Positions 3,601 through 33,904 of a stretch of 64,000 nucleotides of DNA are shown piece by piece. The stretch's first letter is position 1, and every line of letters begins with the position of its first letter. The stretch covers positions 37,646-101,645 of the forward strand of contig PDQG01000004.1 in the NCBI GenBank assembly GCA_002747745.1, given 5' to 3'. Origin of the DNA: a bacterium DOLZORAL124_38_8 (lineage in GTDB: Bacteria; Patescibacteriota; Gracilibacteria; UBA4473). Position numbers and translations under genes: made by a program. The notes beneath the pieces were generated by a model. It saw only the letters and a program-made list of their open reading frames with translations. It did no database searches and had not been told where the DNA came from.

Positions 3601-4649
3601 TCATCAATTTTTGATACTTTCATACCAGGATAAATCAAATCAAAATTTGATTTAGGGAATCTTCCTTGACACCCTTTCCCACAACAGTTCATTTTTCCTT
3701 TTTCTCCAGTTTTATGATATTCAATAGTTGTTCCATCTTCGTATATCAAGGTAGTTCCTGTTTTTAGTTTTACCCCTAAATTTTTTGCAAGTTCATACAA
3801 CGTTGAATTATGACTCACCTCACTTTTAAGAGACTTATATTCGTTGCTTTTGAACCAATCTGTTACTTTCTTATTTAACGCTTTATTATTAGAATCAATT
3901 TTCACTTGAGTAGATTTTTTCCCATCAATAGAAATAATTTCTTTTATTCCCATATTTTTTAATTCATCTGATGAGAATTTAGACTCAAATTTCGCTTTAT
4001 CAAAAAACATTTCATACACACATTTTTCAGTCCACTTTTCAACGGTTTCCCCTTCTGTTGGAACCTTTATTGTTTCCTCATGTTCAACTAATACACCTCC
4101 AACAGTCTCTTGTCCGATGTCTAATGAATGGTCAACTTTAACTTTCTCTACTTCCTGCTGTTTTGCAATACAACTTCCGTCTAAACAGTCTTTTAATCGG
4201 TATTCTTTTAAAAGCATTTGGGCTTTTAATTTTTCTGTTCCAGTTAACTCTTTTAAATCATCCGCACTTTTAGGGTTCTCGGCCATATGAATATGCGCCG
4301 CCCCTGATTTATACTCAAAATAATATACCACAGTATCTTTTCCTTTTTTTACCGCAAATGATTTTCCATCATTATACAACAACTCTCCATCAGAAACTTT
4401 GGTACCTTTTTCCCCCTCTTTAAGATTATTTACAAAGTCAACCGCTTTTGTTAATTCTTTGTATACAGTTTCTTTATCAAGATTTTCCAGTCCTTTCATA
4501 GATTCTTGAAAAACTTCGTTTTGTGCTTTTGCAATATCTTTTCCTTGATCAACCCCCTCTGGATTCGAACTAGGGATTGTTTGCCACACAAACTGTGCCT
4601 TAGAAGTACGATTAAACTTGTCTGTAACTGTATTAAATAGATTTTTCAT
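699..4649 (-). CDS. Very large hypothetical protein (1316 aa), no recognisable family
   Basis: Uninterrupted 3.95-kb ORF, K/E/D-rich with no N-terminal signal peptide. It has one short hydrophobic/Gly-rich patch (..SPSFGAISTTDGLFGTATGLVNIF.. and ..FALPIASLCAGILHPF..) and an odd NCCGKGCQG motif. The reverse-frame ORFs inside it are short. Confidence 0.6.
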   Translation of the reverse strand: MKNLFNTVTDKFNRTSKAQFVWQTIPSSNPEGVDQGKDIAKAQNEVFQESMKGLENLDKETVYKELTKAVDFVNNLKEGEKGTKVSDGELLYNDGKSFAVKKGKDTVVYYFEYKSGAAHIHMAENPKSADDLKELTGTEKLKAQMLLKEYRLKDCLDGSCIAKQQEVEKVKVDHSLDIGQETVGGVLVEHEETIKVPTEGETVEKWTEKCVYEMFFDKAKFESKFSSDELKNMGIKEIISIDGKKSTQVKIDSNNKALNKKVTDWFKSNEYKSLKSEVSHNSTLYELAKNLGVKLKTGTTLIYEDGTTIEYHKTGEKGKMNCCGKGCQGRFPKSNFDLIYPGMKVSKIDENTLAITKQGVKEVKKTVLVETPGHTEYAFYKNGQKVDSQTVKNFITEYNKHNVDNPISLPVTQDVLKEIVDSGKATLKYSTIEERKVIKGGKQVDIDALTRVKDANGIRTEDEKDAYLKETQAGATESIDIYRNSMKNFEAEIKAATKAMSPSFGAISTTDGLFGTATGLVNIFLKDKIAGENPDVKAAIEANMPTYIDNFVQKQSGFMNSLSELIKAGKPVFKLIDRFALPIASLCAGILHPFDIYTSKKALAYNSENLKNRGDVVNKVNVYEEALKTNMKNRQHLGGLSLNVDVDAAYNELNKDLSGTVGEMSTEKVTEDGKEIEKLVGKDVMAKLGLAIDESGVIYAKEAAKMRKIVFHWFFDGRLSADGQRMKSLIEQLSHPIDPQSTMIERMEENQKRLGMLKNIIETARIETADDVLDRDVKKLIPDKNQQAELIKKLMDGTVKNTDLVKKVAALLSEWDAEDLAKIDFTKEQVNRVQEALKTGKYDKQVVGDAKEMLRSVFGWRYQSMNSKRLRGRHSMLHGYDEAARHMGDMIQNQRDLLAARYSIDGYKDETGEIDKAGALQHAAAFGFLESYVSETEYGTAEAQVIAQKLVKDFGLEEDATNVLAGYFAAGDSLKRAKYLSQHLLDLNPVLGVVKLETIKDVQSDALKNIMKVENSAIRECLLKCLEYASPEEYSNDWFLSVKSGKLPVMIPTAIWKKLDVTSQETLKQSNIGSGFGDPETITKTTTETVFNKELVPILGADFGGHVVADYLENETYSADGTTVEKTSAKTETVKQLSENRKARLTERYTRKLKRLEKRLGSSEKAFLDKARPNQKENLKALAGTKSEKEFLKGLIASDDSLRKLEPLNPSLENDSNLMVKNNSKQPEAISPTLTVEKVKEMSIDEALDLIPKGDAVIRLQSENSTYKTNNGVTEFNKAAYTENLTRNNLKAVSISQAKVEAGKVTQLIIKVEKIK

Positions 4650-7782: not shown

Positions 7783-8460
7783 TTATTCAGGGTTTTGACA
7801 GTTGTCTTTTTTCCATTGTTCAATTTTAGCATGATGCCCACTCAATAAAACTTCGGGCACTTTTAGGCCTCTAAAATCTGATGGACGAGTGTATTGCGGG
7901 TATTCAAGTTTTCCGTCTAGTGCAAGCGAAAAACTTTCCTCTTGATGACTGACTTCTTTTCCAATTACGCCTGGCAATAATCGAGCCACCGAATCAATAA
8001 AAATTTGGGCTGGCAATTCTCCGCCCGTTAACACATACGACCCAAGCGAAATTTGCTCATCAACTAACTCATCTATCACACGCTGATCAATCCCTTCGTA
8101 ATGCCCACAAAGCAAAATAACACGATCAATATTCTTTTCAGTTGGATAAGCGGCAAACGATTCCGCCAGTCGTTGGTTCCAAACTTTTCCGTGCGGCGAA
8201 AAGAAAATTACAGGTGCCTTACTCTCAGATAATGACTGAACATGCTCAATACAATCAAACAATGGCTGACAAGTCATAAGCAACCCCGCTCCACCGCCAA
8301 AAGGAACATCATCTACTTTTTTGTGTTTATCCGTCGTAAACTGACGAATATCAAATACTTCAATTTCTATTTTTTTTGATTCAACCGCTCGACCAATAAT
8401 CGAAGTGGTTTTAAACGAATCAAAAGCCTGCGGAAACAATGTTAGTATCTGAAATTTCAT
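7783..8460 (-). CDS. trmD: tRNA (guanine37-N1)-methyltransferase
   Basis: MKFQILTLFPQAFDSF.. N-terminus, then ..VDDVPFGGGAGLLM.. and ..SLGSYVLTGGELPA.., all typical of TrmD. The internal ATG at 8460 was chosen as start. Confidence 0.9.
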   Translation of the reverse strand: MKFQILTLFPQAFDSFKTTSIIGRAVESKKIEIEVFDIRQFTTDKHKKVDDVPFGGGAGLLMTCQPLFDCIEHVQSLSESKAPVIFFSPHGKVWNQRLAESFAAYPTEKNIDRVILLCGHYEGIDQRVIDELVDEQISLGSYVLTGGELPAQIFIDSVARLLPGVIGKEVSHQEESFSLALDGKLEYPQYTRPSDFRGLKVPEVLLSGHHAKIEQWKKDNCQNPE

Positions 8461-8534
8461 ATCGCCTAAAACAATACGCATTTCTATTTTTTAAACAAGT
8501 TGGAGCGCTGAATCATTTCTGTCAAACAGCCCTA

Positions 8535-9080
8535 CTACTTTAAATACGATTTTAAAAACGATAGTGCAGCCACGCTCGCCGAACTTGAAATATAATCGCC
8601 TTGCAATAAATGAGATTCTACTTCGTCTAATGAGGCCACTTCAAACGTTTCAATTTGCTCGGCAGGTTCTAGTTCTCTTTCGGTACCAGGCTCACACCCT
8701 TCGGCCACCACAAAAAAATACTCCATGGCCGAAGCCGTTGGATTGGCGAGTGTTTTTCCTAACACTTTAAACGATTTGGCTTGGTAACCAGTTTCTTCAA
8801 ACAGTTCTCGAGCCGCCGCTTGAATGGAGGTTTCACCATCATCAATAATGCCCGCACAAAACTCGGTTACCACTTTTCCACCACCGTGTTTGTAATTATT
8901 TTGTAATAAAATGTTCCCGTTATCCAGCAACGGCATTACAATAACCGCATTATTCGACAAATGCACAAACCAATCTCCTTCGGTTTTATCTGGAAACTCT
9001 ACGCGTTGTTTTTCAATCTTACAAAACGGTTCGTTGATAATACGTTCGGAAGATAAAATTTTAAACGGGGTATATTTCAT
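8535..9080 (-). CDS. NUDIX hydrolase (ADP-ribose pyrophosphatase-like)
   Basis: Nudix box GIIDDGETSIQAAARELFEETGY. The start at 9080 (MKYTPFKIL..) avoids overlap with the upstream ATPase gene. Confidence 0.8.
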   Translation of the reverse strand: MKYTPFKILSSERIINEPFCKIEKQRVEFPDKTEGDWFVHLSNNAVIVMPLLDNGNILLQNNYKHGGGKVVTEFCAGIIDDGETSIQAAARELFEETGYQAKSFKVLGKTLANPTASAMEYFFVVAEGCEPGTERELEPAEQIETFEVASLDEVESHLLQGDYISSSASVAALSFLKSYLK

Positions 9081-9093
9081 TGGTATTGGTAAA

Positions 9094-11880
9094 TTATTCA
9101 GTAGCAACGGCTTTTTGCTGTGCTTCATGCGGCGTTTGCAACGCATTTACGTCTACATGCGGATCCGCCGCCGCCGCTTCAGCCACTTTGTTGATGGTAT
9201 CAATCCCCATTCGTGCTTCAATTTCTTGGTCGACAAATTCTTTCGCTCGTCCGTATTTAATTCGAGAGTATTTTTGGATAATTTCCAGCATTTTCGGATT
9301 TTTCACACTCGGATCATACAAAGTCTGCATTGAGAATGGTCGTGAAGTGGTATTGTTTACGTTTAGTTTTACATAGGCTTTATAATTGGCCATCGACAAA
9401 ATATCTTGGGCTGATAACAACGGAGCGTACTCTTTTTCTAAGTATTCGGCATCTTCGGCCCCCACTTTAAAACTCATCATTGACCCCACATTCCCAAACA
9501 CAGCATTTTTAATTTTGTCGTCTTTGGGTCCCATTCCTCCCCCTTCGGTTAATTGGGCGATGTATTGGTGGGCCATAATAAGATTCAAACGATATTTTCG
9601 GGCTTCCGATAGAATGGCCGCAAAAGTATCCGTCGCAAAGTTTTGGAACTCATCCACATAAAAGTACAAATCTTTCCGATCTTCTGGAGCCATATCCGCT
9701 CGGGCCATAGCGGCTTGATTAATTTTCGATACCGCAATCAACCCTAACAACTGGGCGTTGATTCCCCCAATTCGTCCTTTCGATAGATTAATCAACAACA
9801 CTTTTTGGCTATCCATACATTCTCGGAAATTAAAAGCCGATTTAGTTTGACCAATAATATTCCGCATCGTGGTGTTCGTCACAAACGGACCAAATTTAGA
9901 AGTAAAATACGGAATCATTTCTTGTTTTTCTCGTTCTCCGGTATTCGCCATTTCATTATCCCAAAAGGCTTTTACCACCACATTTTTTACTTTCGAAACT
10001 TTATATTTCTGGAACTCATCATCAATAAACAACCGTGGAATATCAATCAACGTCGCCCCTTCATCGTCATCATCCATCAAGGTCAAACACCCATTTCGGA
10101 AGTAATGCTGAATCCGTGGACCGAAAATTTCGTTCCCAAACAACTTAATGAAGATTTCCATTGCATCCAACGCCGCTCGTTCTTTTTGTTCCGATCCAGA
10201 CGCTTCTAAAATATTCAACCCCATTGGTCGTTCTACGTCTCCAGGATTAAAGAAAATCACTTCTTTCGCTCGTTCTTTCGGACACGAAGCCGCAATATCT
10301 TCTACCAAATCTCCATGCGGATCAATCACACATACTCCTTCGCCATTGGCTACATCTTGCCGGGCCATATTCCATAACAACACCGATTTCCCTGACCCAG
10401 ATTTCCCAATAATATACGTATGCCGCGTTCGGTCAGAACGGTTAAAACGAATTTCTTTTTCGACCCCACGGTAGATATTTTTTCCGAGCACGGGGCCTTC
10501 AGTTGGCAACACCAATGGCGCTGGCAATACTTTATAAGTCAACCATTTAATGGTTGGAATTTTATTATATTTCGCATCTGGGAAATGGAAAATTGACGCC
10601 AATTCCTCCGCCACAAGCAACGATTCTCGTTCCCAGAAGAAATTATGCAATCGCAAACGAAAATTATGCCACATCATTTTGCAATTAATGGCATTAATAA
10701 ACAATAATCGTGTATATTCAAACCGATTCGCCCCTTTTGATTTAAAAATATTAAAGGCCAAGAAAATTCCGTTCAAAATATCTTGCACCCGTTGTTCGTC
10801 ACTCGCTCCAGCCATAATTCGCACGACACACTCAAACCCCGTTTGCGTTGATTTTTCTCCAATCGATTTATAAATTTCTTCTTCGGCCTGCAACATCCGC
10901 ACCAACGGATCTCCGCCTTGTTTATTCCCATTTCCTAGTTTGTCTACTTCTGGATCGTACCCACGCCACAATAATCGAAACGGAAACAATAACGCACTTA
11001 AAATTGGTCCAATAATTGGAATATGAAACCCAGTAGGTGGTTTTTTTCCTTTAAACAACATCGTTCCCACTTCTTTAGCCTTCTTCTGCCATTTTGGATT
11101 TTTAGGATGTGCTACAATTTGAATAGCTGCCTTTTCATGACGGGCTAACTTCGCAAACGAATTGGCCAACCCATTCAACGGATCATCTTCCACTTTTTTG
11201 TACGTATTAATCGGATACCAAAATTCTTTGGCGATATAGGCATGAAACCCATTAAACTTCAAACCATTAAAATTAAATTGTTCTTCGGGTTTAATGTATT
11301 CCACTTCAGCCGACTCGTAGAAAGTCGTAATTTGTTTCTGAATCAATTTTTCGTAGTACGGTTCACAAATTACCACAAAACTCATTTCTTGGTTTTCAAA
11401 CTGCAATTCGAACGAAATTTGCGGACGTTTCCACAACCACCGTTTCATGACAATATTGTACAACCCTAAATCTCGTGTTTCATGAAGCGACCGAAACAAT
11501 TGCTCCATCCGTCCAATAATTTCTCGGAAATCTTTTTCCGTTCGTTTTTCGTTATCAAGTTTCGAATCGTTTTTAGGCAACGTAATTCGCATATGCACCA
11601 GTTTTTCGGCCAGTTTTCGATCGTGGTAATACCGCACAATAATTTTGGCAATCCAAATAATGGTCCAAATATCCAACGCCACCATCAGCAAACTCAACGC
11701 ATACGGAATAACGCCAATAGTGTTAATGTGGTCAACATTCCACAAATTTGAGATATTCCCCAAATTATTTCCGGTTCCAGCCGCCGTGGCTCCTAGTAAC
11801 ACTCGTACCCCCACTCGACTTCCAAAAAATCGTGCCAATACCCCCATTCGAATCAACAAAAACCGGATAAAACTTGCCAT
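9094..11880 (-). CDS. Membrane-anchored VirD4/TraG/TraD-like (type IV coupling protein family) P-loop ATPase
   Basis: Hydrophobic N-terminal helices, Walker A IIGKSGSGKSVLL, Walker B LYFYVDEFQNFAT, then ..NLIMAHQYIAQL... The architecture resembles T4SS coupling or HerA/FtsK-type ATPases. Assignment is by motif inspection only. Confidence 0.65.
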   Translation of the reverse strand: MASFIRFLLIRMGVLARFFGSRVGVRVLLGATAAGTGNNLGNISNLWNVDHINTIGVIPYALSLLMVALDIWTIIWIAKIIVRYYHDRKLAEKLVHMRITLPKNDSKLDNEKRTEKDFREIIGRMEQLFRSLHETRDLGLYNIVMKRWLWKRPQISFELQFENQEMSFVVICEPYYEKLIQKQITTFYESAEVEYIKPEEQFNFNGLKFNGFHAYIAKEFWYPINTYKKVEDDPLNGLANSFAKLARHEKAAIQIVAHPKNPKWQKKAKEVGTMLFKGKKPPTGFHIPIIGPILSALLFPFRLLWRGYDPEVDKLGNGNKQGGDPLVRMLQAEEEIYKSIGEKSTQTGFECVVRIMAGASDEQRVQDILNGIFLAFNIFKSKGANRFEYTRLLFINAINCKMMWHNFRLRLHNFFWERESLLVAEELASIFHFPDAKYNKIPTIKWLTYKVLPAPLVLPTEGPVLGKNIYRGVEKEIRFNRSDRTRHTYIIGKSGSGKSVLLWNMARQDVANGEGVCVIDPHGDLVEDIAASCPKERAKEVIFFNPGDVERPMGLNILEASGSEQKERAALDAMEIFIKLFGNEIFGPRIQHYFRNGCLTLMDDDDEGATLIDIPRLFIDDEFQKYKVSKVKNVVVKAFWDNEMANTGEREKQEMIPYFTSKFGPFVTNTTMRNIIGQTKSAFNFRECMDSQKVLLINLSKGRIGGINAQLLGLIAVSKINQAAMARADMAPEDRKDLYFYVDEFQNFATDTFAAILSEARKYRLNLIMAHQYIAQLTEGGGMGPKDDKIKNAVFGNVGSMMSFKVGAEDAEYLEKEYAPLLSAQDILSMANYKAYVKLNVNNTTSRPFSMQTLYDPSVKNPKMLEIIQKYSRIKYGRAKEFVDQEIEARMGIDTINKVAEAAAADPHVDVNALQTPHEAQQKAVATE

Positions 11881-12019
11881 TTAATTAACTATTAAATTCT
11901 GTTTATTATACTATTTCATCCCGTTTAAGTCCATTTTTATACCAATACGAGCGGTGTTTTAGGTAGATTTTTGACAAAACATATGGTATTGTAAAAAACT
12001 AAGAACGAACCTCACCCCC

Positions 12020-14458
12020 TTATTGGTTAATCACTTGAATTCGTTTAAACCCAGGTGGAGATTGCTCAATAGCTTTTCGATCAAACCGAAGGATGAATGA
12101 GTACGACTTTTCTCGCCCTGTAGGAGAACTATCATCATTTTTACAGTTTCCAGATACAAAAGAACTAGCATTATACTCCCCCAACGGCAGACAGCTCTGC
12201 ATATCTAAATTTAAATTCCGTATATACAACAAATCATACTTTGGCGATATTAGTTGTGAACTACCCTTCGGCTCCATTCCCCATGGATGATATAAATACG
12301 GATCATTCGTATTCTTAGCAGCTCCCCCAACTGTATTCATCGTTAATAACGCTCCCACTAATCGCAATTGTTTATCTGAAGTTAAGTCAATATTATCTAC
12401 ATTCAAGTTAGATAAATTAACGGTACTAGTATTCACAAATCCTCCATCCGCAAAAAATGACCCGCGAATATTCTGTACCGTTGAATAAACAAAAATATTT
12501 CCTGTACTTGGCGGCACCGTTTGCGTGTCTGTATTAATTAAAATCACGCCAAATGAATCATTCGCTTCATTTCCATAATAAGTGTTATCAGCAATCAACA
12601 AGTTCCCATCAACAATTACCACCGTTTTTTTACCGCTTGGGAGTTTTCCTCCAATCTTTACATTCTTTTCCTTGACAATCAACACCCCATCAACTCCAAA
12701 CGGAGCATCTGGAGAAGTAGTTAGGTCTACGTTACTCTCTTTAATATTGTTTGATTCCCGCACTAATGCAAACGCGTTACGCGTAATATTTTCTCTTACA
12801 TCCGTTTGTGAAATTCCTGATAAAGCCTGTAAGTCATTCGATAAAAACTTCGTAGTCGTATCGCGTTTAATAACGGTTCCTTCTATATACACCCCTTTCG
12901 CTACATTAATTTGTCCAATTGAATTTCCCGCAAAATATCTCACCGTCTTTTTATTCTCCCCAATTTGAACATCATATTCAACAATTGATTGCAAATCAAA
13001 TTCTGGCATTAATTTATTATTTCCATCAGCCCCACTGCCACTTGGCATGTTGAAATTAAAAATATAATCAACGGATTTATTGTTTAACCCTAGGGCAAAA
13101 TAATTACTAGGATTTAAGGCATTCGAAAATTTACTAAAAATTCCATCTTTATTAAAACTCAAACCAACATGATACCCTGAATCATCCAAATATGAATGCG
13201 CAACTTCCTTACCAGCGGCTCCTGTTAAAGATAAATTGGACGGAAGCGTTCCATTTCTATCAATTTTGGCAAGAAGTTCTATTTTGTCATATTTAGTCGA
13301 GTCATCCTCAGCGATTTTTCCAGTCCGTCGTTCATAAGTTAATTCATCAGATAAATTAAAGAATCCACCTTTAAAATTACTCATTAAATTGTTTACCCTA
13401 TCCATATTGGGAACAAGAGATATCTTGATTCGCTGATTATCATACATATTATTGGCAAATTCATTCGCTCCTAATGGATTAAAAGTACCGTCCAATCTAT
13501 CACTATTTGTATCATCCCCCCCCGCTAAAGTTCCTGGTTGCAAGTTAATATTCAACAACACGGGGCGCTTAAACAGAATTGGTTGTTCTAACTCTTTCGT
13601 CTCTACAAGTGGAATTAGCGTTCCTGCGTCACCATTATTGGCTATATTAGGCACTTGTTTTACTAAAATTTTCAAGTTTTTGGCCACCTCTTCTGTCACA
13701 TTATTGATGTTTCTTAATGTTGGTACCCAAGAAACTAAGTCAATCGAAAACACTCCCTCATATCCTGTTACAGCGCTAATTGAACTATTCTTTAACAATT
13801 GATTATTCACCATTAATCCGTTTTTCAATGATAATCCTAAATTACCATCATCCGTTCTAAATAAAGCTTGTTGCTCCCTTGGAATCTCTACTTTAGCATT
13901 ACTAGCCTTATAAACCTTATTCCCATATGAATCTCTCAAAACAACGCCAGCTTTACATACATCCGAACCATCGGCATATTTACCCGTACAAGTATTAATC
14001 AACGTATCAATATTCTCTGCATCAATATCTCCCGGCATAATTTTAAAATTGAATGCCTTTTCAGCTTCATTTCCCACGGCATCCACTAATTTAACCGTTA
14101 TTTTATAGGTTCCCGCATTTTTGAAACACTGTTTTAATGTATCAGAATTACTATTTTGAATATCTATTTGAATGGTTTCAGCTGATCTTCGTGAGATTTT
14201 TCTGTCATCATCTTTAAATTTTGCCAAAACATCCTTTAATAATTTTGGATTAGTAAACAACTCAACCGCTGAATTTAAAACTGATTTCGTCTCTCCAAAA
14301 CAAGTAATTTCCTTTACCTCCGCCTTTTCATCAGGCGTAAAATTAATTTGCATGGTAGATTTAGTTAAATCTATCCCCGAAGTAGCCATACCATGTACCA
14401 ACCACGGTGCCCCCAACAAACACGCTCCCAACACAAACGTTCGCCAAAATTGTTTCAT
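12020..14458 (-). CDS. Large secreted/surface protein (812 aa), function unknown
   Basis: Signal peptide MKQFWRTFVLGACLLGAPWLVHG, N/S/T/G-rich beta-type composition, and an Ig-like-looking N-terminal module (..YKITVKLVDAVGNEAEKAFNFKI..). It lies directly upstream of the ATPase gene on the same strand. Confidence 0.6.
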   Translation of the reverse strand: MKQFWRTFVLGACLLGAPWLVHGMATSGIDLTKSTMQINFTPDEKAEVKEITCFGETKSVLNSAVELFTNPKLLKDVLAKFKDDDRKISRRSAETIQIDIQNSNSDTLKQCFKNAGTYKITVKLVDAVGNEAEKAFNFKIMPGDIDAENIDTLINTCTGKYADGSDVCKAGVVLRDSYGNKVYKASNAKVEIPREQQALFRTDDGNLGLSLKNGLMVNNQLLKNSSISAVTGYEGVFSIDLVSWVPTLRNINNVTEEVAKNLKILVKQVPNIANNGDAGTLIPLVETKELEQPILFKRPVLLNINLQPGTLAGGDDTNSDRLDGTFNPLGANEFANNMYDNQRIKISLVPNMDRVNNLMSNFKGGFFNLSDELTYERRTGKIAEDDSTKYDKIELLAKIDRNGTLPSNLSLTGAAGKEVAHSYLDDSGYHVGLSFNKDGIFSKFSNALNPSNYFALGLNNKSVDYIFNFNMPSGSGADGNNKLMPEFDLQSIVEYDVQIGENKKTVRYFAGNSIGQINVAKGVYIEGTVIKRDTTTKFLSNDLQALSGISQTDVRENITRNAFALVRESNNIKESNVDLTTSPDAPFGVDGVLIVKEKNVKIGGKLPSGKKTVVIVDGNLLIADNTYYGNEANDSFGVILINTDTQTVPPSTGNIFVYSTVQNIRGSFFADGGFVNTSTVNLSNLNVDNIDLTSDKQLRLVGALLTMNTVGGAAKNTNDPYLYHPWGMEPKGSSQLISPKYDLLYIRNLNLDMQSCLPLGEYNASSFVSGNCKNDDSSPTGREKSYSFILRFDRKAIEQSPPGFKRIQVINQ

Positions 14459-15691: not shown

Positions 15692-15820
15692 GGCTTCGTG
15701 TTGACATCGACCTACTTTCCCAAGGCTATCCCCAAGTATCATCGGCGCTGGTAGACTTAACTTCTGAGTTCGGAATGAGATCAGGTGTACCCCTACCGCT
15801 ACAGACATCAACACGAAACC
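15692..15820 (-). rRNA. rrf: 5S ribosomal RNA
   Basis: The reverse complement contains the conserved ..CCGAACTCAGAAGTTAAG.. and ..GCGCCGATGATACTTGGGG.. blocks. The terminal helix GGTTTCGTGTTGA pairs with TCAACACGAAGCC. Ends are approximate. Confidence 0.85.
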
Positions 15821-15926
15821 TTCTTATGTCGGTTTCTTTTACTTTCGAAAAGAGAATATTCATTCTTATTAAACAAAATTGTGATAACAAATTTGCGATT
15901 TTGATTGATTTTAAAGCTTGAATTTC

Positions 15927-15973
15927 CTTATGACTTGTTTACCGAAAGATAAACAAATGAATTCAAGAATAAA
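15927..15973 (-). other. 3' half of the 23S rRNA processing (RNase III-type) stem
   Basis: cttatgacttgtttaccgaaagataaacaaatgaattcaag is largely complementary to 18849-18889 on the other side of the 23S gene. Confidence 0.65.
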
Positions 15974-18848
<2,875 letters not shown>

Positions 18849-18889
18849 TATTCTTGAATTTGTTCATCTTTCAATAAACAAGTCATAAG
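18849..18889 (-). other. 5' half of the 23S rRNA processing stem
   Basis: tattcttgaatttgttcatctttcaataaacaagtcataag pairs with 15927-15973. Confidence 0.65.
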
Positions 18890-19321: not shown

Positions 19322-19332
19322 GACCTGAAACT

Positions 19333-22620: not shown

Positions 22621-23033
22621 TGGTGGAGATGGCGAGAATCGAACTCGCGTCCGACGAGGACATCCCATACCATCTACGCTCATAGTTTTATTTATCTACG
22701 GCGAATGCTTAAAAATAAAACAAAAAACATTCGTTCGTTAATTGCTAAAAGGTCTTATAAATCGGCAATCAATCGATTTATAACGAGTCTCTAAATTGAA
22801 ACATAACCGGCGAGACAGTAGTTATATTTCACGTAGGAGCAAATGGCTCAACCACGATTTGTTAGACAGCCAAAGAAAATTTAGCTGTTTGAGCCCAAGA
22901 TCGCAAAGATGTTTGAGCTCGGTTTTTAAGTTTTGCACTTATTTATTTGTCACATTGGATCTCTCGGCGAATATGACACGCCGCTAACGCAAGTATGCAA
23001 TGTCAGGTCTCATCGTCAAAGCCTGGCATCCCC
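22621..23033 (-). ncRNA. ssrA: tmRNA (SsrA), one-piece, about 413 nt
   Basis: The 5' GGGGATG pairs with the 3' CATCTCC-ACCA, including G3:U70. The T-arm is GGACGCGAGTTCGATTCTCGCC. A candidate tag ORF runs from GCA at 22936 to TAA at 22862 and ends ..AKFSLAV. Confidence 0.9.
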
Positions 23034-26098: not shown

Positions 26099-26128
26099 CA
26101 AAATTAAAAAATATTGAAAATAAAAAAA

Positions 26129-26152
26129 ATCCAGCCTTCGGCTGGATTTTTT
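26129..26152. terminator. Bidirectional terminator between jag and the convergent 910-aa ORF
   Basis: CCAGCC (26131-26136), loop ttc, GGCTGG (26140-26145), with an A-run before and a T-run after. Confidence 0.6.
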
Positions 26153-26174
26153 CGTATCTTCAGAAACCACCAGG

Positions 26175-28907
26175 CTAAAACTTATAGTTTCTTTTAATAA
26201 AATCTGCTGAATCATTAGCCTGTCTATCATATTTTTTCAATTCTGATTTATAATTCTTTACAACATCTCGTAGAGAATTTGAATTATTCACAAATAATTG
26301 CATATCGACCGCATTAAAATCATTATATTCCAGACGTTTATTTAAATGCTTCAACTCTAAAAATAAATTATTCATTTTGGGATTATTCAACCCATGACCT
26401 TCATAAAAATCATTGTTTTTCATATTGTTTGCCACCATATCAGTCATTTCCCCAATTTCTTTCTTATTTTGTGCAAAATCTAACTCTAATTTCGACATAC
26501 GATTGAACTGCTCTTGATAAGTTTTATACGCCTCTTTTAAGCGTCCCATTTCAATATTAATTGCATCAATATTTCCACTTTGTTTAATTTGATCAAATGA
26601 TTTCATTCTAAATTGTAATTCATCAATCACTGTATCAAAATTTCCAACAGCTCTAGCAAGTTTTTCACTGTATCCATCATTAATTCTCATTTTTTCAACC
26701 ACTCGACGAGCCTGACTTAAATGCTCGGGATTTACTTTCGAAACAGGTTTCTTTTCAGGCGTTCGTGTTTTCTTTTTTAAACGAGCTAATCGTTCAATTT
26801 TATTCGCATTAAAGTCAACTTCATACCGAGATACTCCCTTTATTTCTTGTACTCGCCAAACACCAGAAGTTTTAGTTTCACCTAACAAACGAACCTCATG
26901 AGATTTACCAGACGAATCTAAAAATCGCACAAAATTAGATTCTTTTAACCGATTAAGTTTGGCTTCCGAGTTAACTGAATCCTTATTAGCCGTTTCTTCT
27001 ATTGGTTGTTGTTTTTTAGTGGTCGTTTTTTTATTTTCAGTTTTTACGGCTGTTTCTTTTTGCAATCGCACGCCAGCTTCTTGAGAAATCTCTACCACAT
27101 TCCCAGTGGAATCTGTTTTCTTAACTGTTTGCTTTTTATATGCTTCTGCTCCCACACGATTAGACTTTGTCACGTGCTCCACAATCGTCCCATCTTTTTG
27201 AATTTTAAATCGTTCTCCAGTTTTTAATTCCACAATTTGTGTAAATTGTGCTTCATGCACACCATAAACTTTTTTAAAAACAGATTGCTCTTCTATAGTA
27301 ATAGTTTTCCCTCCACGAACTAACGAAAATCCCGATTCCGTTCGAGTAACAGAATAAGAAATATCTTTAACAGTTTTTGTAAAAGATTCTCCCACTTTCA
27401 ATTCCTGAATTTGTTCTGTCGCTGTTAAGGTTTTTATATCTAACACTTTTGTTTTTACGCCTTCTAAAGATTCCTTAAACGCCGCTAAATCCTTTTTAGT
27501 AACCCCATTTTTTTCTAAGTTTTTCAATGTTTGCCCCATTTCGGCCACTTGCGTTTCAAGTGTATTCAAACGATTCACATCAATGTCACCTGCTCGCATT
27601 GAATCTAAGTTCAAATTAATTTCAACCGCTTTCATTTTCCCTTCGGCAACCACTTCTTTTTGACGTAATGTAGCTATTTCTGCTTCCAAACTAGTCACTT
27701 TCGATGTTTTTTCATTTAATTCTGACTGCAATCGATTTACTAAATCAAGATGCCCTTTTTCTTTGGCTTGGGCTAATTTGTCGGCCGTATCTCTCTGCGA
27801 TTTTAAGGCTTCATCAAATTGATTTTTCCTTTCAGATAATTGCGTTTTCACTTTTTCGAATTCAACTTTCATTCCGTTAAATTCTCCCTCCAAAGTTTTG
27901 TAATTTTGACTTACTTCTTTGAATTGATTCTTCCACTTATCTTTTTTGGCTTTTAATTTTTTATTGGTTGCTTTTTCGTCAACTAATAACTGTTCCTTCT
28001 CAGCAATCAAACTTTTATCTGCGTCTGCATCCTTTTTCAATTGTGCAATCTCAGTTTCTTTTGCTTGAATACTTTTATTTGATTCCGACAATTGTCCTTC
28101 CAATTTTTCCACTTTCATTTTAGCTTCTTCTATTTCCAACCGTTGATTCGCTAAAGCTTCATCAAAAACAGCAGTATGTCTTCTCAACTTTCCTTCTAAA
28201 TCTGTCACCTTCAACTCGGCCTGAATGGCAGGATTAGAAGCAATGAAATCCGCATCTGACATTTCATTATACGCCTTTTGGGCCGCTAATTTTTCTGGAT
28301 CAACTTCTGGCTCTTGTTTTTTAGGTTCAGGATTTTCCATTGTATCATTTTTTTCCGTTCCTGATTTAGATTTATTTTTTGATGCAGAAGTTCGTTTCCC
28401 TAACTTCTCAACTTTTAACTTTTCAATCGTAATAATAGTTTTCCCCACTTTTAATTCGTTCCCCACCAATAATTTTTCATTCAATGGAACATTTCTTTTC
28501 ACAACTTTTTTCGTTCCTTTTCTTCCATGTTCAATCACATCTACTAACGTCTCTCCCTGTTTATTTTTAGTAATTTCTATTTCATATTTTTTTGAAATTC
28601 GAATTTTATCTCCCACGGTCAGATTCTTTCTGGCAATACCAGATTTTCTGTAATCTGCACCCTCCTTCAAAATATTTTTCAATTTTTTTCCTTTCTTTAC
28701 TTCCAACAAATTCAATTTTGATTCTTTTATTTGTATTTCGGTTAAGATTCTTTCGGCTTTTGTATCACCTGATTTTCTTAAAGATTTCAAGACTTTTTTG
28801 ACTGACTTAACTCGCCCCAACAGTTCATTTTGTACGGTTTGAATACTTTCATTTACTAATTTTTGTTCCGCTAATCGAGCTTTCCGTTTCGCTTCTGACA
28901 ATCCCAT
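26175..28907 (-). CDS. Large coiled-coil protein (910 aa), function unknown
   Basis: Long K/E/Q-rich heptad-like segments (..EIEEAKMKVEKLEGQLSESNKSIQAKETEIAQLKKD..) are interspersed with beta-rich modules. There is no signal peptide. The 5' end overlaps the upstream ORF by 59 nt in the +1 frame. Confidence 0.55.
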   Translation of the reverse strand: MGLSEAKRKARLAEQKLVNESIQTVQNELLGRVKSVKKVLKSLRKSGDTKAERILTEIQIKESKLNLLEVKKGKKLKNILKEGADYRKSGIARKNLTVGDKIRISKKYEIEITKNKQGETLVDVIEHGRKGTKKVVKRNVPLNEKLLVGNELKVGKTIITIEKLKVEKLGKRTSASKNKSKSGTEKNDTMENPEPKKQEPEVDPEKLAAQKAYNEMSDADFIASNPAIQAELKVTDLEGKLRRHTAVFDEALANQRLEIEEAKMKVEKLEGQLSESNKSIQAKETEIAQLKKDADADKSLIAEKEQLLVDEKATNKKLKAKKDKWKNQFKEVSQNYKTLEGEFNGMKVEFEKVKTQLSERKNQFDEALKSQRDTADKLAQAKEKGHLDLVNRLQSELNEKTSKVTSLEAEIATLRQKEVVAEGKMKAVEINLNLDSMRAGDIDVNRLNTLETQVAEMGQTLKNLEKNGVTKKDLAAFKESLEGVKTKVLDIKTLTATEQIQELKVGESFTKTVKDISYSVTRTESGFSLVRGGKTITIEEQSVFKKVYGVHEAQFTQIVELKTGERFKIQKDGTIVEHVTKSNRVGAEAYKKQTVKKTDSTGNVVEISQEAGVRLQKETAVKTENKKTTTKKQQPIEETANKDSVNSEAKLNRLKESNFVRFLDSSGKSHEVRLLGETKTSGVWRVQEIKGVSRYEVDFNANKIERLARLKKKTRTPEKKPVSKVNPEHLSQARRVVEKMRINDGYSEKLARAVGNFDTVIDELQFRMKSFDQIKQSGNIDAINIEMGRLKEAYKTYQEQFNRMSKLELDFAQNKKEIGEMTDMVANNMKNNDFYEGHGLNNPKMNNLFLELKHLNKRLEYNDFNAVDMQLFVNNSNSLRDVVKNYKSELKKYDRQANDSADFIKRNYKF

Positions 28908-31179
28908 TTGGAATATCAGAATCTTTAATTTTATATCGTTCTAATTTTCGCACCATTCTTAAATCGCGTTGGGCAATTTTTTTCAAACTTGGTTTCCAAA
29001 ATCGTCTTCGAGATACTTTTAATTCATTTAATCTGTACGATTTATTCAAAGACCGTTCAACCGAAAAGGCTAACTTTTGGAACCGCAATCGAAGCGGACG
29101 CCAAACTTTTAGTCCCAAAACTTTTCTTGGTTTTATTAACACCGATTTCATTTTCCCTTTTGAATATTCAATCGACACATCATTGTTTGTATCAACTTTT
29201 TCAGGTTTTTGTTTTGGCTGTTTCTTGGTTTTCAAATTTGTTGGACCTTCCGTCACCGAGAGTTTCATTTCTCGCAAAATATTTTGAGCCGTAGTTGAAC
29301 CAGTAGCATCAACATTTCGAGCTTTCAAAGCGCCCAATTCTGCCTGATTCACTTGCCCCTCCAAAATATCTCGTATATCAAATTTTTCTCCTCTCTCGGC
29401 CGCATCATATATTTTACGAGCCTTTTTAGGATTTAGTCGTCCGTCGTTTACTCGGTTTGACAAAAGTCTTCTCAAGGCATTAATTTTCGCATTATTTTTT
29501 ACCAGATTACCATTCAAATCTCTCCATTCTGATGCGGGAATTTTTACTTCAGCCCCAGCTCCACTATACAACGTACACAAGTCTTCCGCCGTTTCGGAAA
29601 CTCGCTGTGGAACGGTTTTTTGATCAACTGAGTTCTTAATAACTTCTGATTTTTGTTTCTTAGCTTTTTCTGGTTTTGTTTTTGATGCTTCTGAATCAGT
29701 TTCTTCAGTCTTTGTTTCAGATTTATTTTCTTCTGATTTTTTTGTTTTGCTGGCATCCGTTGAATTTGATTCCGATTTTTCACCTTTTATTTTTTGCGCC
29801 GCATTAGCATTTTTTTTGTTTCCCCATTGATTCATTCGCTCCATTGGTCGCCGCATAGCACTCCCACTGATACGCAATGCCCCAGCTGCAACAAATGCGT
29901 GGAACCATTCATCCCCACTCGCAAAGGTCTCGAACACTTCATTTATATCACCTTTATAAGTTCCATTTTGAACCGCCGCAATTAATACCATAGCCGTAGC
30001 TTCAGCCGAAAGATTTACTCCATCAGCGGTTAGATTTTTAATTCCATTTAATAATTTTTTATCTGCCACATTTGGCAACAAGTTTTTTAATTTAGTCCCA
30101 ACTCCAATTTTGTGAACCATTTTAAACACGCCAAGCGTAGCGGCTGTCCACATAACACGAGTTCCAATTTCTCCCAATCCATTTGCATCAAAAATCGTAT
30201 CTACTTCTTTATCCAAAACACTTCCCATTCCTTCCATTAAGGCTCCGTGCATTCCTTCAAAGGCCAAGGCTTCGACCCCTAATCCAACAAATCCACGAGC
30301 TCCATTAGCAATACGACCAATTCTTCCTAATCGGGCAGCTGATAGCCCCATACGAGCCACGACCGAACGAGCGCCGGCCGACAAACCAAACCTAGCCACA
30401 TTCGCGAACCCACCAGAAACAATAATCAGCGGTGCATTAATAACTAATTCTTCGAATACGGTATCCCAAGTCTCATCTGCCCAATTAAAAGTCCCAATTC
30501 CTGCCGATTTAACATATTGATCCCAAAATTCTGTTTTATCAGCTGGAATACGATTTTCTAAATCATTATCGTAAATATATTCAGCAATTTTTTCGTTTCT
30601 TCCGTGCTGATAGGTTTCCATAATCAAAGCATCAACATAATTTTTCGCTTGTTTTTGCGCTTCTTTACCCTGAATTTCTGGATTTTGCTCTACTATTTGC
30701 CCCGTCAACTTTTGTACATCAATTTGAGAACTTACTTTTTTCTTCGCTTCTTCGTACACATCTTGCTGTACTTCAATTGTTTCTCCATTTGAATTTTTCA
30801 ATTTAACTAATGAGAATTTCTCTTTTTCTAATTTTCCAAAAGTTTCGGTCAGTTCTTCTACCGCTAAATGACGTGCAGTTTCGTAATGCCCACCAGTTGT
30901 TTCTGTATCTCTTAACTTTTTAACGACTAACGCCTTAAATTTCAATAAATCAGATTTACTGTTAATTTTTGATACATTAAAAGCCTCTTGCGTTCCAGCC
31001 GTTCTATCTAAATCAAACCAACTATCCTTAAATACATCATCGACAGCATTTTTCTCTTCTGAACCAGCCGGTAATAATTCATTAAATATATCCGAAAAGT
31101 TCTCCCCTTTTAAAATTCGAGACTTAATATTTTCTTTGTTGCTATTATATTTGTTCATCGCCGAACGAACACCAGCCAA
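28849..31179 (-). CDS. Large hypothetical protein (776 aa) with central Gly/Ala-rich hydrophobic block
   Basis: The track start is TTG; the first ATG is at 31158. Residues ~245-440 (nt 29860-30447) read ..VINAPLIIVSGGFANVARFGLSAGARSVVARMGLSAARLGRIGRIANGARGFVGLGVEALAFEGMHGALMEGMG.., followed by a K/E/S/T low-complexity linker. Confidence 0.55.
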   Translation of the reverse strand: MAGVRSAMNKYNSNKENIKSRILKGENFSDIFNELLPAGSEEKNAVDDVFKDSWFDLDRTAGTQEAFNVSKINSKSDLLKFKALVVKKLRDTETTGGHYETARHLAVEELTETFGKLEKEKFSLVKLKNSNGETIEVQQDVYEEAKKKVSSQIDVQKLTGQIVEQNPEIQGKEAQKQAKNYVDALIMETYQHGRNEKIAEYIYDNDLENRIPADKTEFWDQYVKSAGIGTFNWADETWDTVFEELVINAPLIIVSGGFANVARFGLSAGARSVVARMGLSAARLGRIGRIANGARGFVGLGVEALAFEGMHGALMEGMGSVLDKEVDTIFDANGLGEIGTRVMWTAATLGVFKMVHKIGVGTKLKNLLPNVADKKLLNGIKNLTADGVNLSAEATAMVLIAAVQNGTYKGDINEVFETFASGDEWFHAFVAAGALRISGSAMRRPMERMNQWGNKKNANAAQKIKGEKSESNSTDASKTKKSEENKSETKTEETDSEASKTKPEKAKKQKSEVIKNSVDQKTVPQRVSETAEDLCTLYSGAGAEVKIPASEWRDLNGNLVKNNAKINALRRLLSNRVNDGRLNPKKARKIYDAAERGEKFDIRDILEGQVNQAELGALKARNVDATGSTTAQNILREMKLSVTEGPTNLKTKKQPKQKPEKVDTNNDVSIEYSKGKMKSVLIKPRKVLGLKVWRPLRLRFQKLAFSVERSLNKSYRLNELKVSRRRFWKPSLKKIAQRDLRMVRKLERYKIKDSDIPNGIVRSETESSISGTKISK

Positions 31180-31272
31180 GGTATCGGAAAAAATAAAACT
31201 ATTTAATTTTTGTGCCGTCTTGTTAAGCCACCCATAATCTTTTTTTGCATCTCCTTGATTTAAAGCCCAAGA

Positions 31273-32004
31273 TTACATCGCCGACATCATAGTATTGGTC
31301 AGTTCAAATTGCTCAAACTGCAATTGTCTTTGCTGATTTAATTTTTCAAATTCAACCAATCCTTCTTTAAAGGCCGCCGCTTTTTCTTGAGCGGTCATAC
31401 TGTTATAAATAGCCGTTAATTCATTTTTTGGTAAATGATCTAACGCAAATTTTTTTCCTTCAGAATTTACCAACAGACTTCCCTCAAATTTGTATTTTGT
31501 TCGCACATCTCTTCTTACAGAATTTAAATTTAATTGTTTTTTCTCTGGATTGTTCTTTTTAGTTGGTGTGTTTTCTACCACTAACTTTCCATTTTTTAGT
31601 ATAACCGATTGCCCCGATTTAAATGTATTCACATCAAACCCATCGGCCGTTAACTCTTTTAAGGCCAACAAAACTGAAGCTTGTTTCTTTAATAAAGATT
31701 TATCTCCTGATTGTTTTACTGCATTAAATGACATCGTAGAATTATAAGACTCATTATGCAATATCTGCCACAAGGCCCCGTATAAATACCCCCCTTCACG
31801 AGTAATTTCTACCGATACATTTGGTTTCAACACCTCCGATAATTCTCGTAAACCTTGTTTTGCGTCAGCCTCAACATTTTCATACAGTTCTTCGTACTTT
31901 TGCTGTTGTGATTCTATCGAATCACCCGCATTTAAGCCTTCCGAAAACTGGTACAAAAACCGTTTTTCATCGGTAAATCGTCGTTGGTGGACCAAATGTT
32001 TCAT
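31273..32004 (-). CDS. Hypothetical protein (243 aa), possibly the N-terminal part of the downstream ORF
   Basis: It ends at TAA 31273-31275, in the same frame as ORF 28849-31179. The 93 nt between them contain no stop. A TGnTACAAT-like box lies about 22 nt upstream of the ATG. Confidence 0.5.
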   Translation of the reverse strand: MKHLVHQRRFTDEKRFLYQFSEGLNAGDSIESQQQKYEELYENVEADAKQGLRELSEVLKPNVSVEITREGGYLYGALWQILHNESYNSTMSFNAVKQSGDKSLLKKQASVLLALKELTADGFDVNTFKSGQSVILKNGKLVVENTPTKKNNPEKKQLNLNSVRRDVRTKYKFEGSLLVNSEGKKFALDHLPKNELTAIYNSMTAQEKAAAFKEGLVEFEKLNQQRQLQFEQFELTNTMMSAM

Positions 32005-32073
32005 ACTTTTTTCAAAAATTCAGAGCATTGTACCATAATTCATGCATTTATTCACCTATTTCAAGTTGAAAAA

Positions 32074-33631: not shown

Positions 33632-33904
33632 CTAATATCTCTTATTTACTTTCCGATTCTCATCAATAGCCTTCCCAATGGACAATATTCCAGCCGATGC
33701 TAATACTGCTCCACCAGGAATAGTTAAACTTCCTAAAGCCATTGTTCCAATCGCTCCAACTCCAAGAGCCCCCAAACCAGCCGTCACGGTTCCCTTCACT
33801 ATCCCTTTCACGGTTGCAGAAACATGAGCTGATAGCTTTCCAAATTTAGTCCAAAAACCATTATCTCGTGATTCAAACTCATAACCACCTGTTTCAACTG
33901 ACAT
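33632..33904 (-). CDS. Small glycine-zipper membrane protein (90 aa)
   Basis: ..GTVTAGLGALGVGAIGTMALGSLTIPGGAVLASAGILSIGKAI.. shows repeated small-xxx-small spacing. The N-terminus is polar and the C-terminus is basic. Confidence 0.45.
   Translation of the reverse strand: MSVETGGYEFESRDNGFWTKFGKLSAHVSATVKGIVKGTVTAGLGALGVGAIGTMALGSLTIPGGAVLASAGILSIGKAIDENRKVNKRY

Follow-up and report, generated by a model that had tools for sequence, protein, structure and literature searches.

Three adjacent reading frames in a dolphin-mouth bacterium probably derive from one recently disrupted giant gene

Introduction

The 64,000-nt stretch of DNA analysed here, hereafter called the window, belongs to bacterium DOLZORAL124_38_8, a metagenome-assembled genome (MAG) from a dolphin mouth which the NCBI taxonomy places among the unclassified Bacteria. 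Three open reading frames (ORFs) follow each other closely on its minus strand: ORF1 (31273-32004, 243 aa), ORF2 (28849-31179; 776 aa from the TTG at 31179, or 769 aa from the ATG at 31158, which is the NCBI call) and ORF3 (26175-28907, 910 aa, with its ATG at 28907). Their GenBank entries (PID70610.1, PID70609.1 with 769 aa, and PID70608.1; locus tags CSB37_00785, 00790 and 00795) are each annotated as a hypothetical protein. The question raised by this locus is whether these ORFs are three genes or the pieces of one. Our reading, to which we give a probability of about 0.68, is that they are what is left of one ancestral giant gene that was recently disrupted (a young pseudogene or a just-split gene), and are neither three independent genes nor a gene expressed by recoding.

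ORF1 and ORF2 share a frame in which the only stops from 32022 to 28851 are the TAA at 31275-31273 and the TGA at 28851-28849. The TAA (31273-31275, minus strand, in the context TAA-T) is followed by a stop-free linker of 93 nt, or 31 codons (31180-31272, minus strand), the translation of which is SWALNQGDAKKDYGWLNKTAQKLNSFIFSDT. ORF3 lies in the +1 frame with respect to ORF2 and overlaps it by 59 nt. An earlier note, made from the sequence of the window, had described the ORF coordinates, the TAA with its stop-free linker, the +1 frame and the overlap; all were found as described, and a second assembly (see below) is identical.

Homology across the in-frame stop codon

We used residues 1-480 of ORF2 as the query of an exhaustive phmmer (HMMER) search against 1.84 billion representatives, which returned 75 homologues at E<1e-3, 55 of them at E<1e-10. 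The view that these are orphan ORFs without a placeable motif does not stand, since a 75-member family exists. Most homologues are 1000-2400 aa long, and their ORF2-like part typically begins ~230-500 residues into the protein.

A profile hidden Markov model was built from 36 family members (alignment A1), the window being excluded, and was searched against the 658 stop-to-stop fragments of the window. ORF1 matches profile positions 48-168 (E 1.4e-5) with its residues ~97-243 (window 31276-31716), the match reaching its last residue, and it holds the helical motif of the family, '..aeekkelLkell.eekelteqqelrleQleil..' (profile positions ~117-168). The fragment consisting of the linker and ORF2 matches positions 177-666 (E 7.6e-99; homologous span 29596-31233); this match begins at linker residue 14 (window 31233), upstream of every ATG, GTG or TTG of ORF2. 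When the pieces are fused, a single profile domain results (56-666, E 1.7e-106), and the posterior probability stays high where it crosses the TAA. Also, a BLASTP comparison of ORF1-X-linker-ORF2 with the best homologue, P0004 (1545 aa), gives one high-scoring segment pair (query 187-731, subject 133-681, E 1e-67), which passes straight through the TAA and the linker. ORF1 and the linker alone match the N-terminus of P0004 at E 1e-6, and within the linker SWALNQGD..WLNKT is aligned with FWVNKEGD..WLHKT.

The same continuity is seen in the other relatives. The point of the TAA is spanned in one alignment by 67 of the 74 library proteins; in the other seven the alignment starts within 8 residues of their own N-terminus, and one of these (P0026) was traced to a truncation at a contig end (L004/L016). 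Among 25 related loci (seven from GTDB and 18 further ones, 14 of these from a metagenome scan), the region lies in one ORF wherever the contig allows. In the window copy the N-terminal motif is collinear with the conserved core but is parted from it by the in-frame TAA, and the gene is split into 243, 776 and 910 aa. A family member would be expected to be one uninterrupted ORF of ~970-2400 aa in which ~400 residues or more follow the core; the relatives are all single ORFs. Because the match to relatives with a single ORF continues through the TAA without a break in collinearity, the alignments argue strongly that ORF1, the linker and ORF2 derive from one gene. The TAA thus falls inside a stretch that is continuous in the polypeptides of the relatives, and would be the first lesion, a nonsense codon.

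The linker is formerly coding sequence. Its codon usage is coding-like, with a log-likelihood ratio of 3.9, which is above ~98% of stop-free off-frame windows; this and the homology running through it speak against the suggestion that it could be free of stops by chance. Since the homology persists in the untranslated linker, the disruption appears to be very recent.

Scans of the three ORFs against Pfam, PHROGs, NCBIfam and PADLOC gave nothing above threshold, only sub-threshold noise (H2TH_5, actino_IHF, NOD). A match to a known family such as a phage tape-measure protein, which the earlier note had named as evidence against a single gene, is therefore lacking in these four collections; orthologues always present as three genes, its other counter-example, are the opposite of what is found, the relatives being unsplit. 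A word-index protein search with the fused ORF1 and ORF2 found only the protein itself, and such searches with alignment A1 and with the C-terminal part of ORF3 returned nothing, not even the protein itself, and are thus uninformative.

The protein family and its conserved core

The 75 homologues come from Candidatus Peribacteria, Peregrinibacteria and Gracilibacteria MAGs and from metagenomes, and the GTDB carriers are all such MAGs. The family is undescribed, has no Pfam or NCBIfam model, and is restricted to candidate phyla radiation (CPR) bacteria of the Peribacteria/Peregrinibacteria/Gracilibacteria type. Its architecture comprises a variable N-terminal region ending in the conserved helical motif, a conserved core, and a long, interchangeable and fast-evolving C-terminal part.

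The core (window 29740-30651, minus strand, in ORF2) consists of Gly/Ala-rich amphipathic or hydrophobic helices between two motifs and is predicted to be all-helical. The family pattern is ADETWD...INAPLI(I/V)VSGG, Gly/Ala helices and FHA(Y/F)VAVGALKISG, the C-terminal core motif being FHAYVAVGALKISG; the window copy contains W.qYkd..GiG.f..ADETWDt...El.INAPLIIVSGG, Gly/Ala helices and E.FHAfVAaGAL+ISG. Thirteen core columns are invariant (Y46, E68, N72, A73, P74, I76, G80, E127, F131, W168, G174, F176 and L259, residue 1 corresponding to window position 30651), and all 13 are present in the window copy.

Concerning the C-terminal parts, 33 members were scanned for Pfam domains. Pkinase, Fic and DnaJ are found in two members each, and GGDEF, FHA with a calpain-like domain, Metallophos with a calpain-like domain, PP2C (weak) and an N-terminal LysM in one each; the remaining 22 contain no Pfam domain. 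In P0006 the LysM (peptidoglycan-binding) domain lies at residues 36-88 and is combined with a C-terminal Ser/Thr kinase, a hint that the family's N-terminal region may have its place of action outside the cytoplasm. P0009 (2377 aa, with a C-terminal DnaJ domain), encoded at 906-8039 of contig L010, is followed directly, at 8152-14039, by a further giant ORF, which spans at least 2242 aa and contains no Pfam domain. At least two family paralogues (L004 and L007) are found in the Candidatus Gracilibacteria MAG JBAYNL01, which suggests multi-copy, diversifying gene sets. The homologues lie in varied chromosomal contexts, with no conserved gene neighbourhood across the family except for one syntenic contig (L009, below). 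No conserved downstream partner or immunity gene was seen either, the small downstream ORFs being unrelated between lineages.

The second junction

The frame of ORF3 is open from 28940 down to 26177, the next stop upstream being the TAG at 28943-28941. Both frames are open in an interval of 89 nt (28852-28940, minus strand), which is the sole place where a change from the frame of ORF2 to the +1 frame of ORF3 is possible. The coding signal follows the ORF1/ORF2 frame to ~28940 and the ORF3 frame thereafter; within the interval, codon statistics favour the ORF3 frame throughout (4.7 vs -0.3). The second lesion would very probably be a one-base insertion or another +1 frame change within 28852-28940. 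A 1-nt insertion in a short A-run there would account for the layout of ORF2 and ORF3, and the candidate sites are the A4 in TATAAAATT, near the upstream end, and the A5 in ACAAAAATT, near the downstream end. ORF2 ends in TGA, a stop used by one of the 24 other long ORFs in the window, 21 of which end in TAA; this fits a fortuitous out-of-frame stop met after the frame change. Further hidden frameshifts in the Arg-rich tail of ORF2 were considered and rejected, the other frames being stop-laden or non-coding-like, and no significant internal repeats were found among the three ORFs.

The earlier note had also listed recoding, by which read-through of the TAA and a programmed +1 frameshift would turn the sequence as it stands into a protein of about 1,930 aa. 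The junctions, one in frame and the other at +1, would permit an unbroken product such as the ancestral protein was, and the +1 relation with a rare TGA ending the upstream frame recalls the frameshift of RF2 (prfB). However, TAA is the standard stop in the window and stands here in a strong TAA-T context, and no suppressor tRNA is found in the window. Positions 28849-28870 read ..ACA AAA ATT AGT AAA TGA A.., in which there is no CUU-UGA-C-like or other known +1 slippery motif. Unlike in RF2, there is no CUU UGA C site and no Shine-Dalgarno (SD)-like stimulator before the TGA; a lysine tRNA cannot re-pair on AAU, and the codon statistics place the frame change near 28940, probably ~90 nt upstream of the UGA and not at the stop. 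No relative needs recoding, and we consider this explanation very improbable. The organism uses the standard genetic code, because TAA ends 21 of the 24 other long ORFs and the conserved genes, among them those of RpoC (1299 aa), RelA and MnmA, are intact under table 11. Code 25 or 4, with UGA as a sense codon, was rejected on the same intactness of the conserved genes; past the TGA of ORF2 only 14 codons precede a TAA.

Another possibility is that the lesions are a consensus error, or a strain chimera, in a low-coverage MAG, while the real organism has an intact gene. The MAG seems to have low coverage, and heterogeneity between strains is frequent in genes that evolve fast. Against this, the window from position 22625 on, both junctions included, agrees at 100% identity with the Logan contig SRR6011893_12260 (16.3 kb, run SRR6011893), so that two different assemblers agree over 16.3 kb, although the Logan and GenBank assemblies were probably built from the same reads. 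Because the Logan assembly is identical across the TAA and the frame junction, an artefact of one assembler is excluded, and with it the mis-assembly considered in the earlier note. Moreover, two lesions fall in one gene while ~14,000 codons of the other long ORFs of the window are intact; we estimate the chance that two random errors would both strike this gene at ~1.5%. Since the other long ORFs are intact, the lesions appear specific to this gene, pointing to decay or fission and not to random consensus error, which we hold to be improbable.

Origin of ORF3

ORF3 shows no significant similarity to family members, and it is connected with the gene by position, architecture and length. A JGI marine metagenome contig (L009) carries SufBD (minus strand), the 1545-aa P0004, Jag (KH/R3H) and L27, and the proteins encoded beside P0004 share 57%, 70% and 82% identity with their counterparts in the window. 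P0004 alone fills the interval between SufBD and Jag, where the window has ORF1, ORF2 and ORF3. The C-terminal half of P0004 is made up of long coiled coils and small beta-rich modules and ends in helices, and ORF3 has a like layout, with small beta-rich modules, a long coiled coil (~residues 225-470), a helical C-terminus and no enzymatic domain. By this synteny, and by its reported placement in Dudek et al. 2017, the window organism would belong to a CPR lineage ('Fertabacteria').

The lengths agree with such a layout. In ORF2 taken by itself, 239-246 residues precede the NAPLI motif and 341 follow the core; among 27 family members the median is 432 before the motif, and the part after the core has a minimum of 403 and a median of 710. 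The fusion of all three ORFs has 521 residues before the motif and ~1231 after the core, both within the family range. On its position, architecture and length, ORF3 was probably once part of the same gene. The ancestral gene would then have had ~1,900 codons and would be the orthologue of the single 1545-aa gene at the same position in the related marine bacterium.

The conserved part of the window gene is 31-33% identical to P0004, its C-terminal half is unalignable, and the flanking genes are 57-82% identical. Because of this difference in identity, the giant gene appears to evolve very fast, as expected for host-interaction proteins.

Several observations weigh against the derivation of all three ORFs from one disrupted gene. 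Neither ORF3 nor the final 300 residues of ORF2 showed any match when compared with 74 family proteins and all fetched loci (phmmer --max, BLASTP), and Smith-Waterman alignments with local shuffles against the C-terminus of P0004 gave z ~2-3, as expected for coiled coils. ORF1 and ORF2 alone (1051 aa) are already as long as the shortest complete members (~970-1030 aa), and ORF3 has its own ATG. The ORFs of 776 and 910 codons are fully open despite the 37% GC of the genome. Finally, by the naming convention of such MAGs, the name would suggest a coverage of only ~8x. The lack of similarity of ORF3 is consistent with a common gene because the C-terminal halves of the family are mutually unrelated. 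As to the fully open frames, they indicate that the lesions are very young or that the pieces are still expressed and selected for. The earlier proposal of one giant interrupted gene is thus borne out for ORF1, the linker and ORF2 by the collinear homology across the TAA, and for ORF3 it agrees with synteny and length, with no homology.

The lack of similarity, the ATG and the length of ORF1 and ORF2 are all accommodated if these two form one TAA-broken gene and ORF3 is a separate, lineage-specific coiled-coil gene that overlaps the end of ORF2 by 59 nt; the second giant gene found directly after the gene of the family member P0009 also favours this arrangement. It is a possible but doubtful explanation. 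In the sole syntenic relative, one gene with a coiled-coil C-terminal half extends up to Jag. The tail of ORF2 after the core would also be shorter than the family minimum (341 vs 403 residues), the two are not separated by any intergenic space, by a terminator or by a convincing promoter, and an overlap of 59 nt exceeds what is usual among the other plausible overlaps of the window.

Transcription signals and genomic setting

The block is flanked on one side by the genes of RelA/SpoT, L27 and Jag (KH/R3H), and on the other by those of a SufBD-core protein, a sugar-transferase-like protein and MnmA. 23S and 5S ribosomal RNA (rRNA) and transfer-messenger RNA (tmRNA) genes lie near it; the surroundings are housekeeping genes, with nothing phage-like. 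A promoter-like site (32035-32064, minus strand) is located 5' of ORF1; its 9/12 match to the consensus is weak and no commoner than in shuffles. By eye, an extended -10-like element, TGGTACAAT, is seen ~25 nt ahead of the ATG of ORF1. A strong intrinsic terminator (26123-26153, minus strand), with a 14-bp stem and a T-run, lies directly 3' of ORF3. Between the three ORFs there is no comparably strong terminator, only one weak 6-bp terminator-like match inside ORF2. Because the strong terminator is found only after ORF3, the three ORFs most likely form one transcription unit. SD sequences are nearly absent from the genes across the window, so the lack of an SD before the internal starts, to which the earlier note had drawn attention, is real yet uninformative. 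A TATAAT-like box ends 7-12 nt before many starts (e.g. 19333, 39906, 46969, 50798 and 51217), which suggests very short leaders or leaderless mRNAs.

A single transcription unit with start codons at hand, in a genome where initiation does not need an SD, would also suit a functional gene fission. Two or three separately translated polypeptides (an N-terminal domain, a core protein and a coiled-coil protein) would then cooperate as an operon, with restarts at the TTG 31179 or the ATG 31158 for ORF2 and at the ATG 28907 for ORF3. The 243, 776 and 910 codons are all open in an AT-rich genome, the ORF3 frame is coding-like from the region of its ATG on, and the length of ORF1 and ORF2 is already in the family range. 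However, the homology and the coding-like codon usage of the 31 untranslated linker codons imply a very recent split and not an established architecture. At least 18 residues of the conserved region would be lost, and two splits in one gene resemble decay more. None of ~100 relatives is split, and no relative shows the three-gene operon for an apparatus that the earlier note had offered as one option. We regard a functional fission as unlikely and prefer a single, recently disrupted gene.

Other features of the window were recorded as well. A type IV secretion coupling protein of the VirD4/TrwB type (928 aa) is encoded at 9094-11880 (minus strand) and is adjoined by two large ORFs without a Pfam domain, at 12020-14458 (812 aa) and 699-4649 (1316 aa), both on the minus strand; this region, ~15 kb away from the giant gene, might serve in secretion or in DNA uptake. 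The 23S and 5S rRNA genes (15699-18851, minus strand) have no adjacent 16S gene, and protein ORFs begin at 19324; the rRNA operon is unlinked, as is common in CPR. The tmRNA gene (22621-23033, minus strand) encodes a long tag peptide of 24 residues, AKLKNRAQTSLRSWAQTAKFSLAV. An ORF of 90 aa (33632-33904, minus strand) has a Gly/Ala-zipper hydrophobic C-terminal half and no Pfam match on record.

Comparison with known systems and significance

The helical core may associate with, or insert into, a membrane, and might present or deliver the variable C-terminal module. This module would work where nucleotides are present, in the cytoplasm of the bacterium itself or in that of a host cell; in the window copy it would be a long coiled-coil stalk and not an enzyme. 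Some results speak against such a model. The core has Kyte-Doolittle peaks of 1.1-1.5, which are borderline for transmembrane helices, and the confidence of AlphaFold2 was poor, with a predicted local distance difference test score of 41 for ORF2 alone and 53 for the core with a 20-sequence alignment. Libraries of families, structures and defence systems gave no match; Foldseek searches of the poor models against the PDB had none below E 0.9, and a sequence profile search against the PDB found nothing.

Membrane-integrated sensors (MASE, MHYT and 7TMR-type) are known to carry variable outputs, and the present family resembles them in joining a conserved hydrophobic helical module to Ser/Thr kinase, GGDEF, PP2C and FHA domains. 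It differs from them in the only borderline transmembrane character of the core, in several hundred N-terminal residues without a signal peptide, and in C-termini of 400-1700 residues which include coiled coils, Fic, DnaJ and calpain-like domains. The length, the helical character and the Gly/Ala-rich hydrophobic block recall phage tape-measure proteins. This assignment was rejected, since there is no PHROG or Pfam match, the neighbours are RelA, L27, Jag, SufBD and MnmA, and the homologues occur in varied contexts.

Like polymorphic toxins (Rhs, CdiA, LXG, MARTX-like), the family combines a conserved N-terminal or central module with variable C-termini, including Fic, kinase, protease-like and phosphatase domains, and diverges very rapidly compared with the flanking genes. 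Unlike them, it has no known trafficking domain, no conserved downstream immunity gene and no neighbourhood of secretion-system genes; GGDEF, FHA and DnaJ are atypical for toxins, and the window copy has a coiled coil and no enzyme.

Giant membrane proteins are a hallmark of the Absconditabacteria-Gracilibacteria-Peregrinibacteria clade of CPR, for example in Vampirococcus lugosii (PMC8080830). The present family shares with the giant proteins of that organism the restriction to CPR lineages, lengths above 1000 aa, predicted membrane association, a mosaic of interaction domains, fast evolution and a presumed role in host contact. Compared by description, the Vampirococcus proteins are characterised by WD40, TPR and PKD-type domains, whereas the family described here has a different core and enzymatic C-termini of an intracellular type.

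More speculatively, and with little probability, the family could be a new class of polymorphic effectors that insert themselves into membranes and are used by CPR bacteria living as episymbionts or predators. The conserved N-terminal region, which has a LysM domain in one member, would serve in targeting, and the host membrane would be entered by the amphipathic module of Gly/Ala helices. The interchangeable C-terminal modules (kinase, Fic, GGDEF, DnaJ, phosphatases, calpain-like domains and coiled-coil stalks) would be carried into or onto the host cell, which is likewise a rather improbable proposal at present. If such a reading were true, the rapid turnover, visible in the broken copy and in a C-terminal half that cannot be aligned even between orthologues in synteny, would be the outcome of an arms race with hosts.

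For annotation, CSB37_00785, 00790 and 00795 should be treated as one disrupted gene. The case illustrates how giant genes peculiar to a lineage come to be annotated in pieces in CPR MAGs of low coverage when word-based searches show no homologue. As an event the disruption is ordinary, and what interest there is, a moderate one, lies in the undescribed modular family to which the gene belongs. With at least 75 members, this new family couples a helical Gly/Ala core to swappable kinase, Fic, GGDEF, DnaJ and phosphatase domains, and the core profile with its invariant residues offers a concrete handle for experiments. Giant proteins of this kind, modular and quick to evolve, are prime candidates for the machinery by which episymbiotic CPR bacteria may interact with their hosts.

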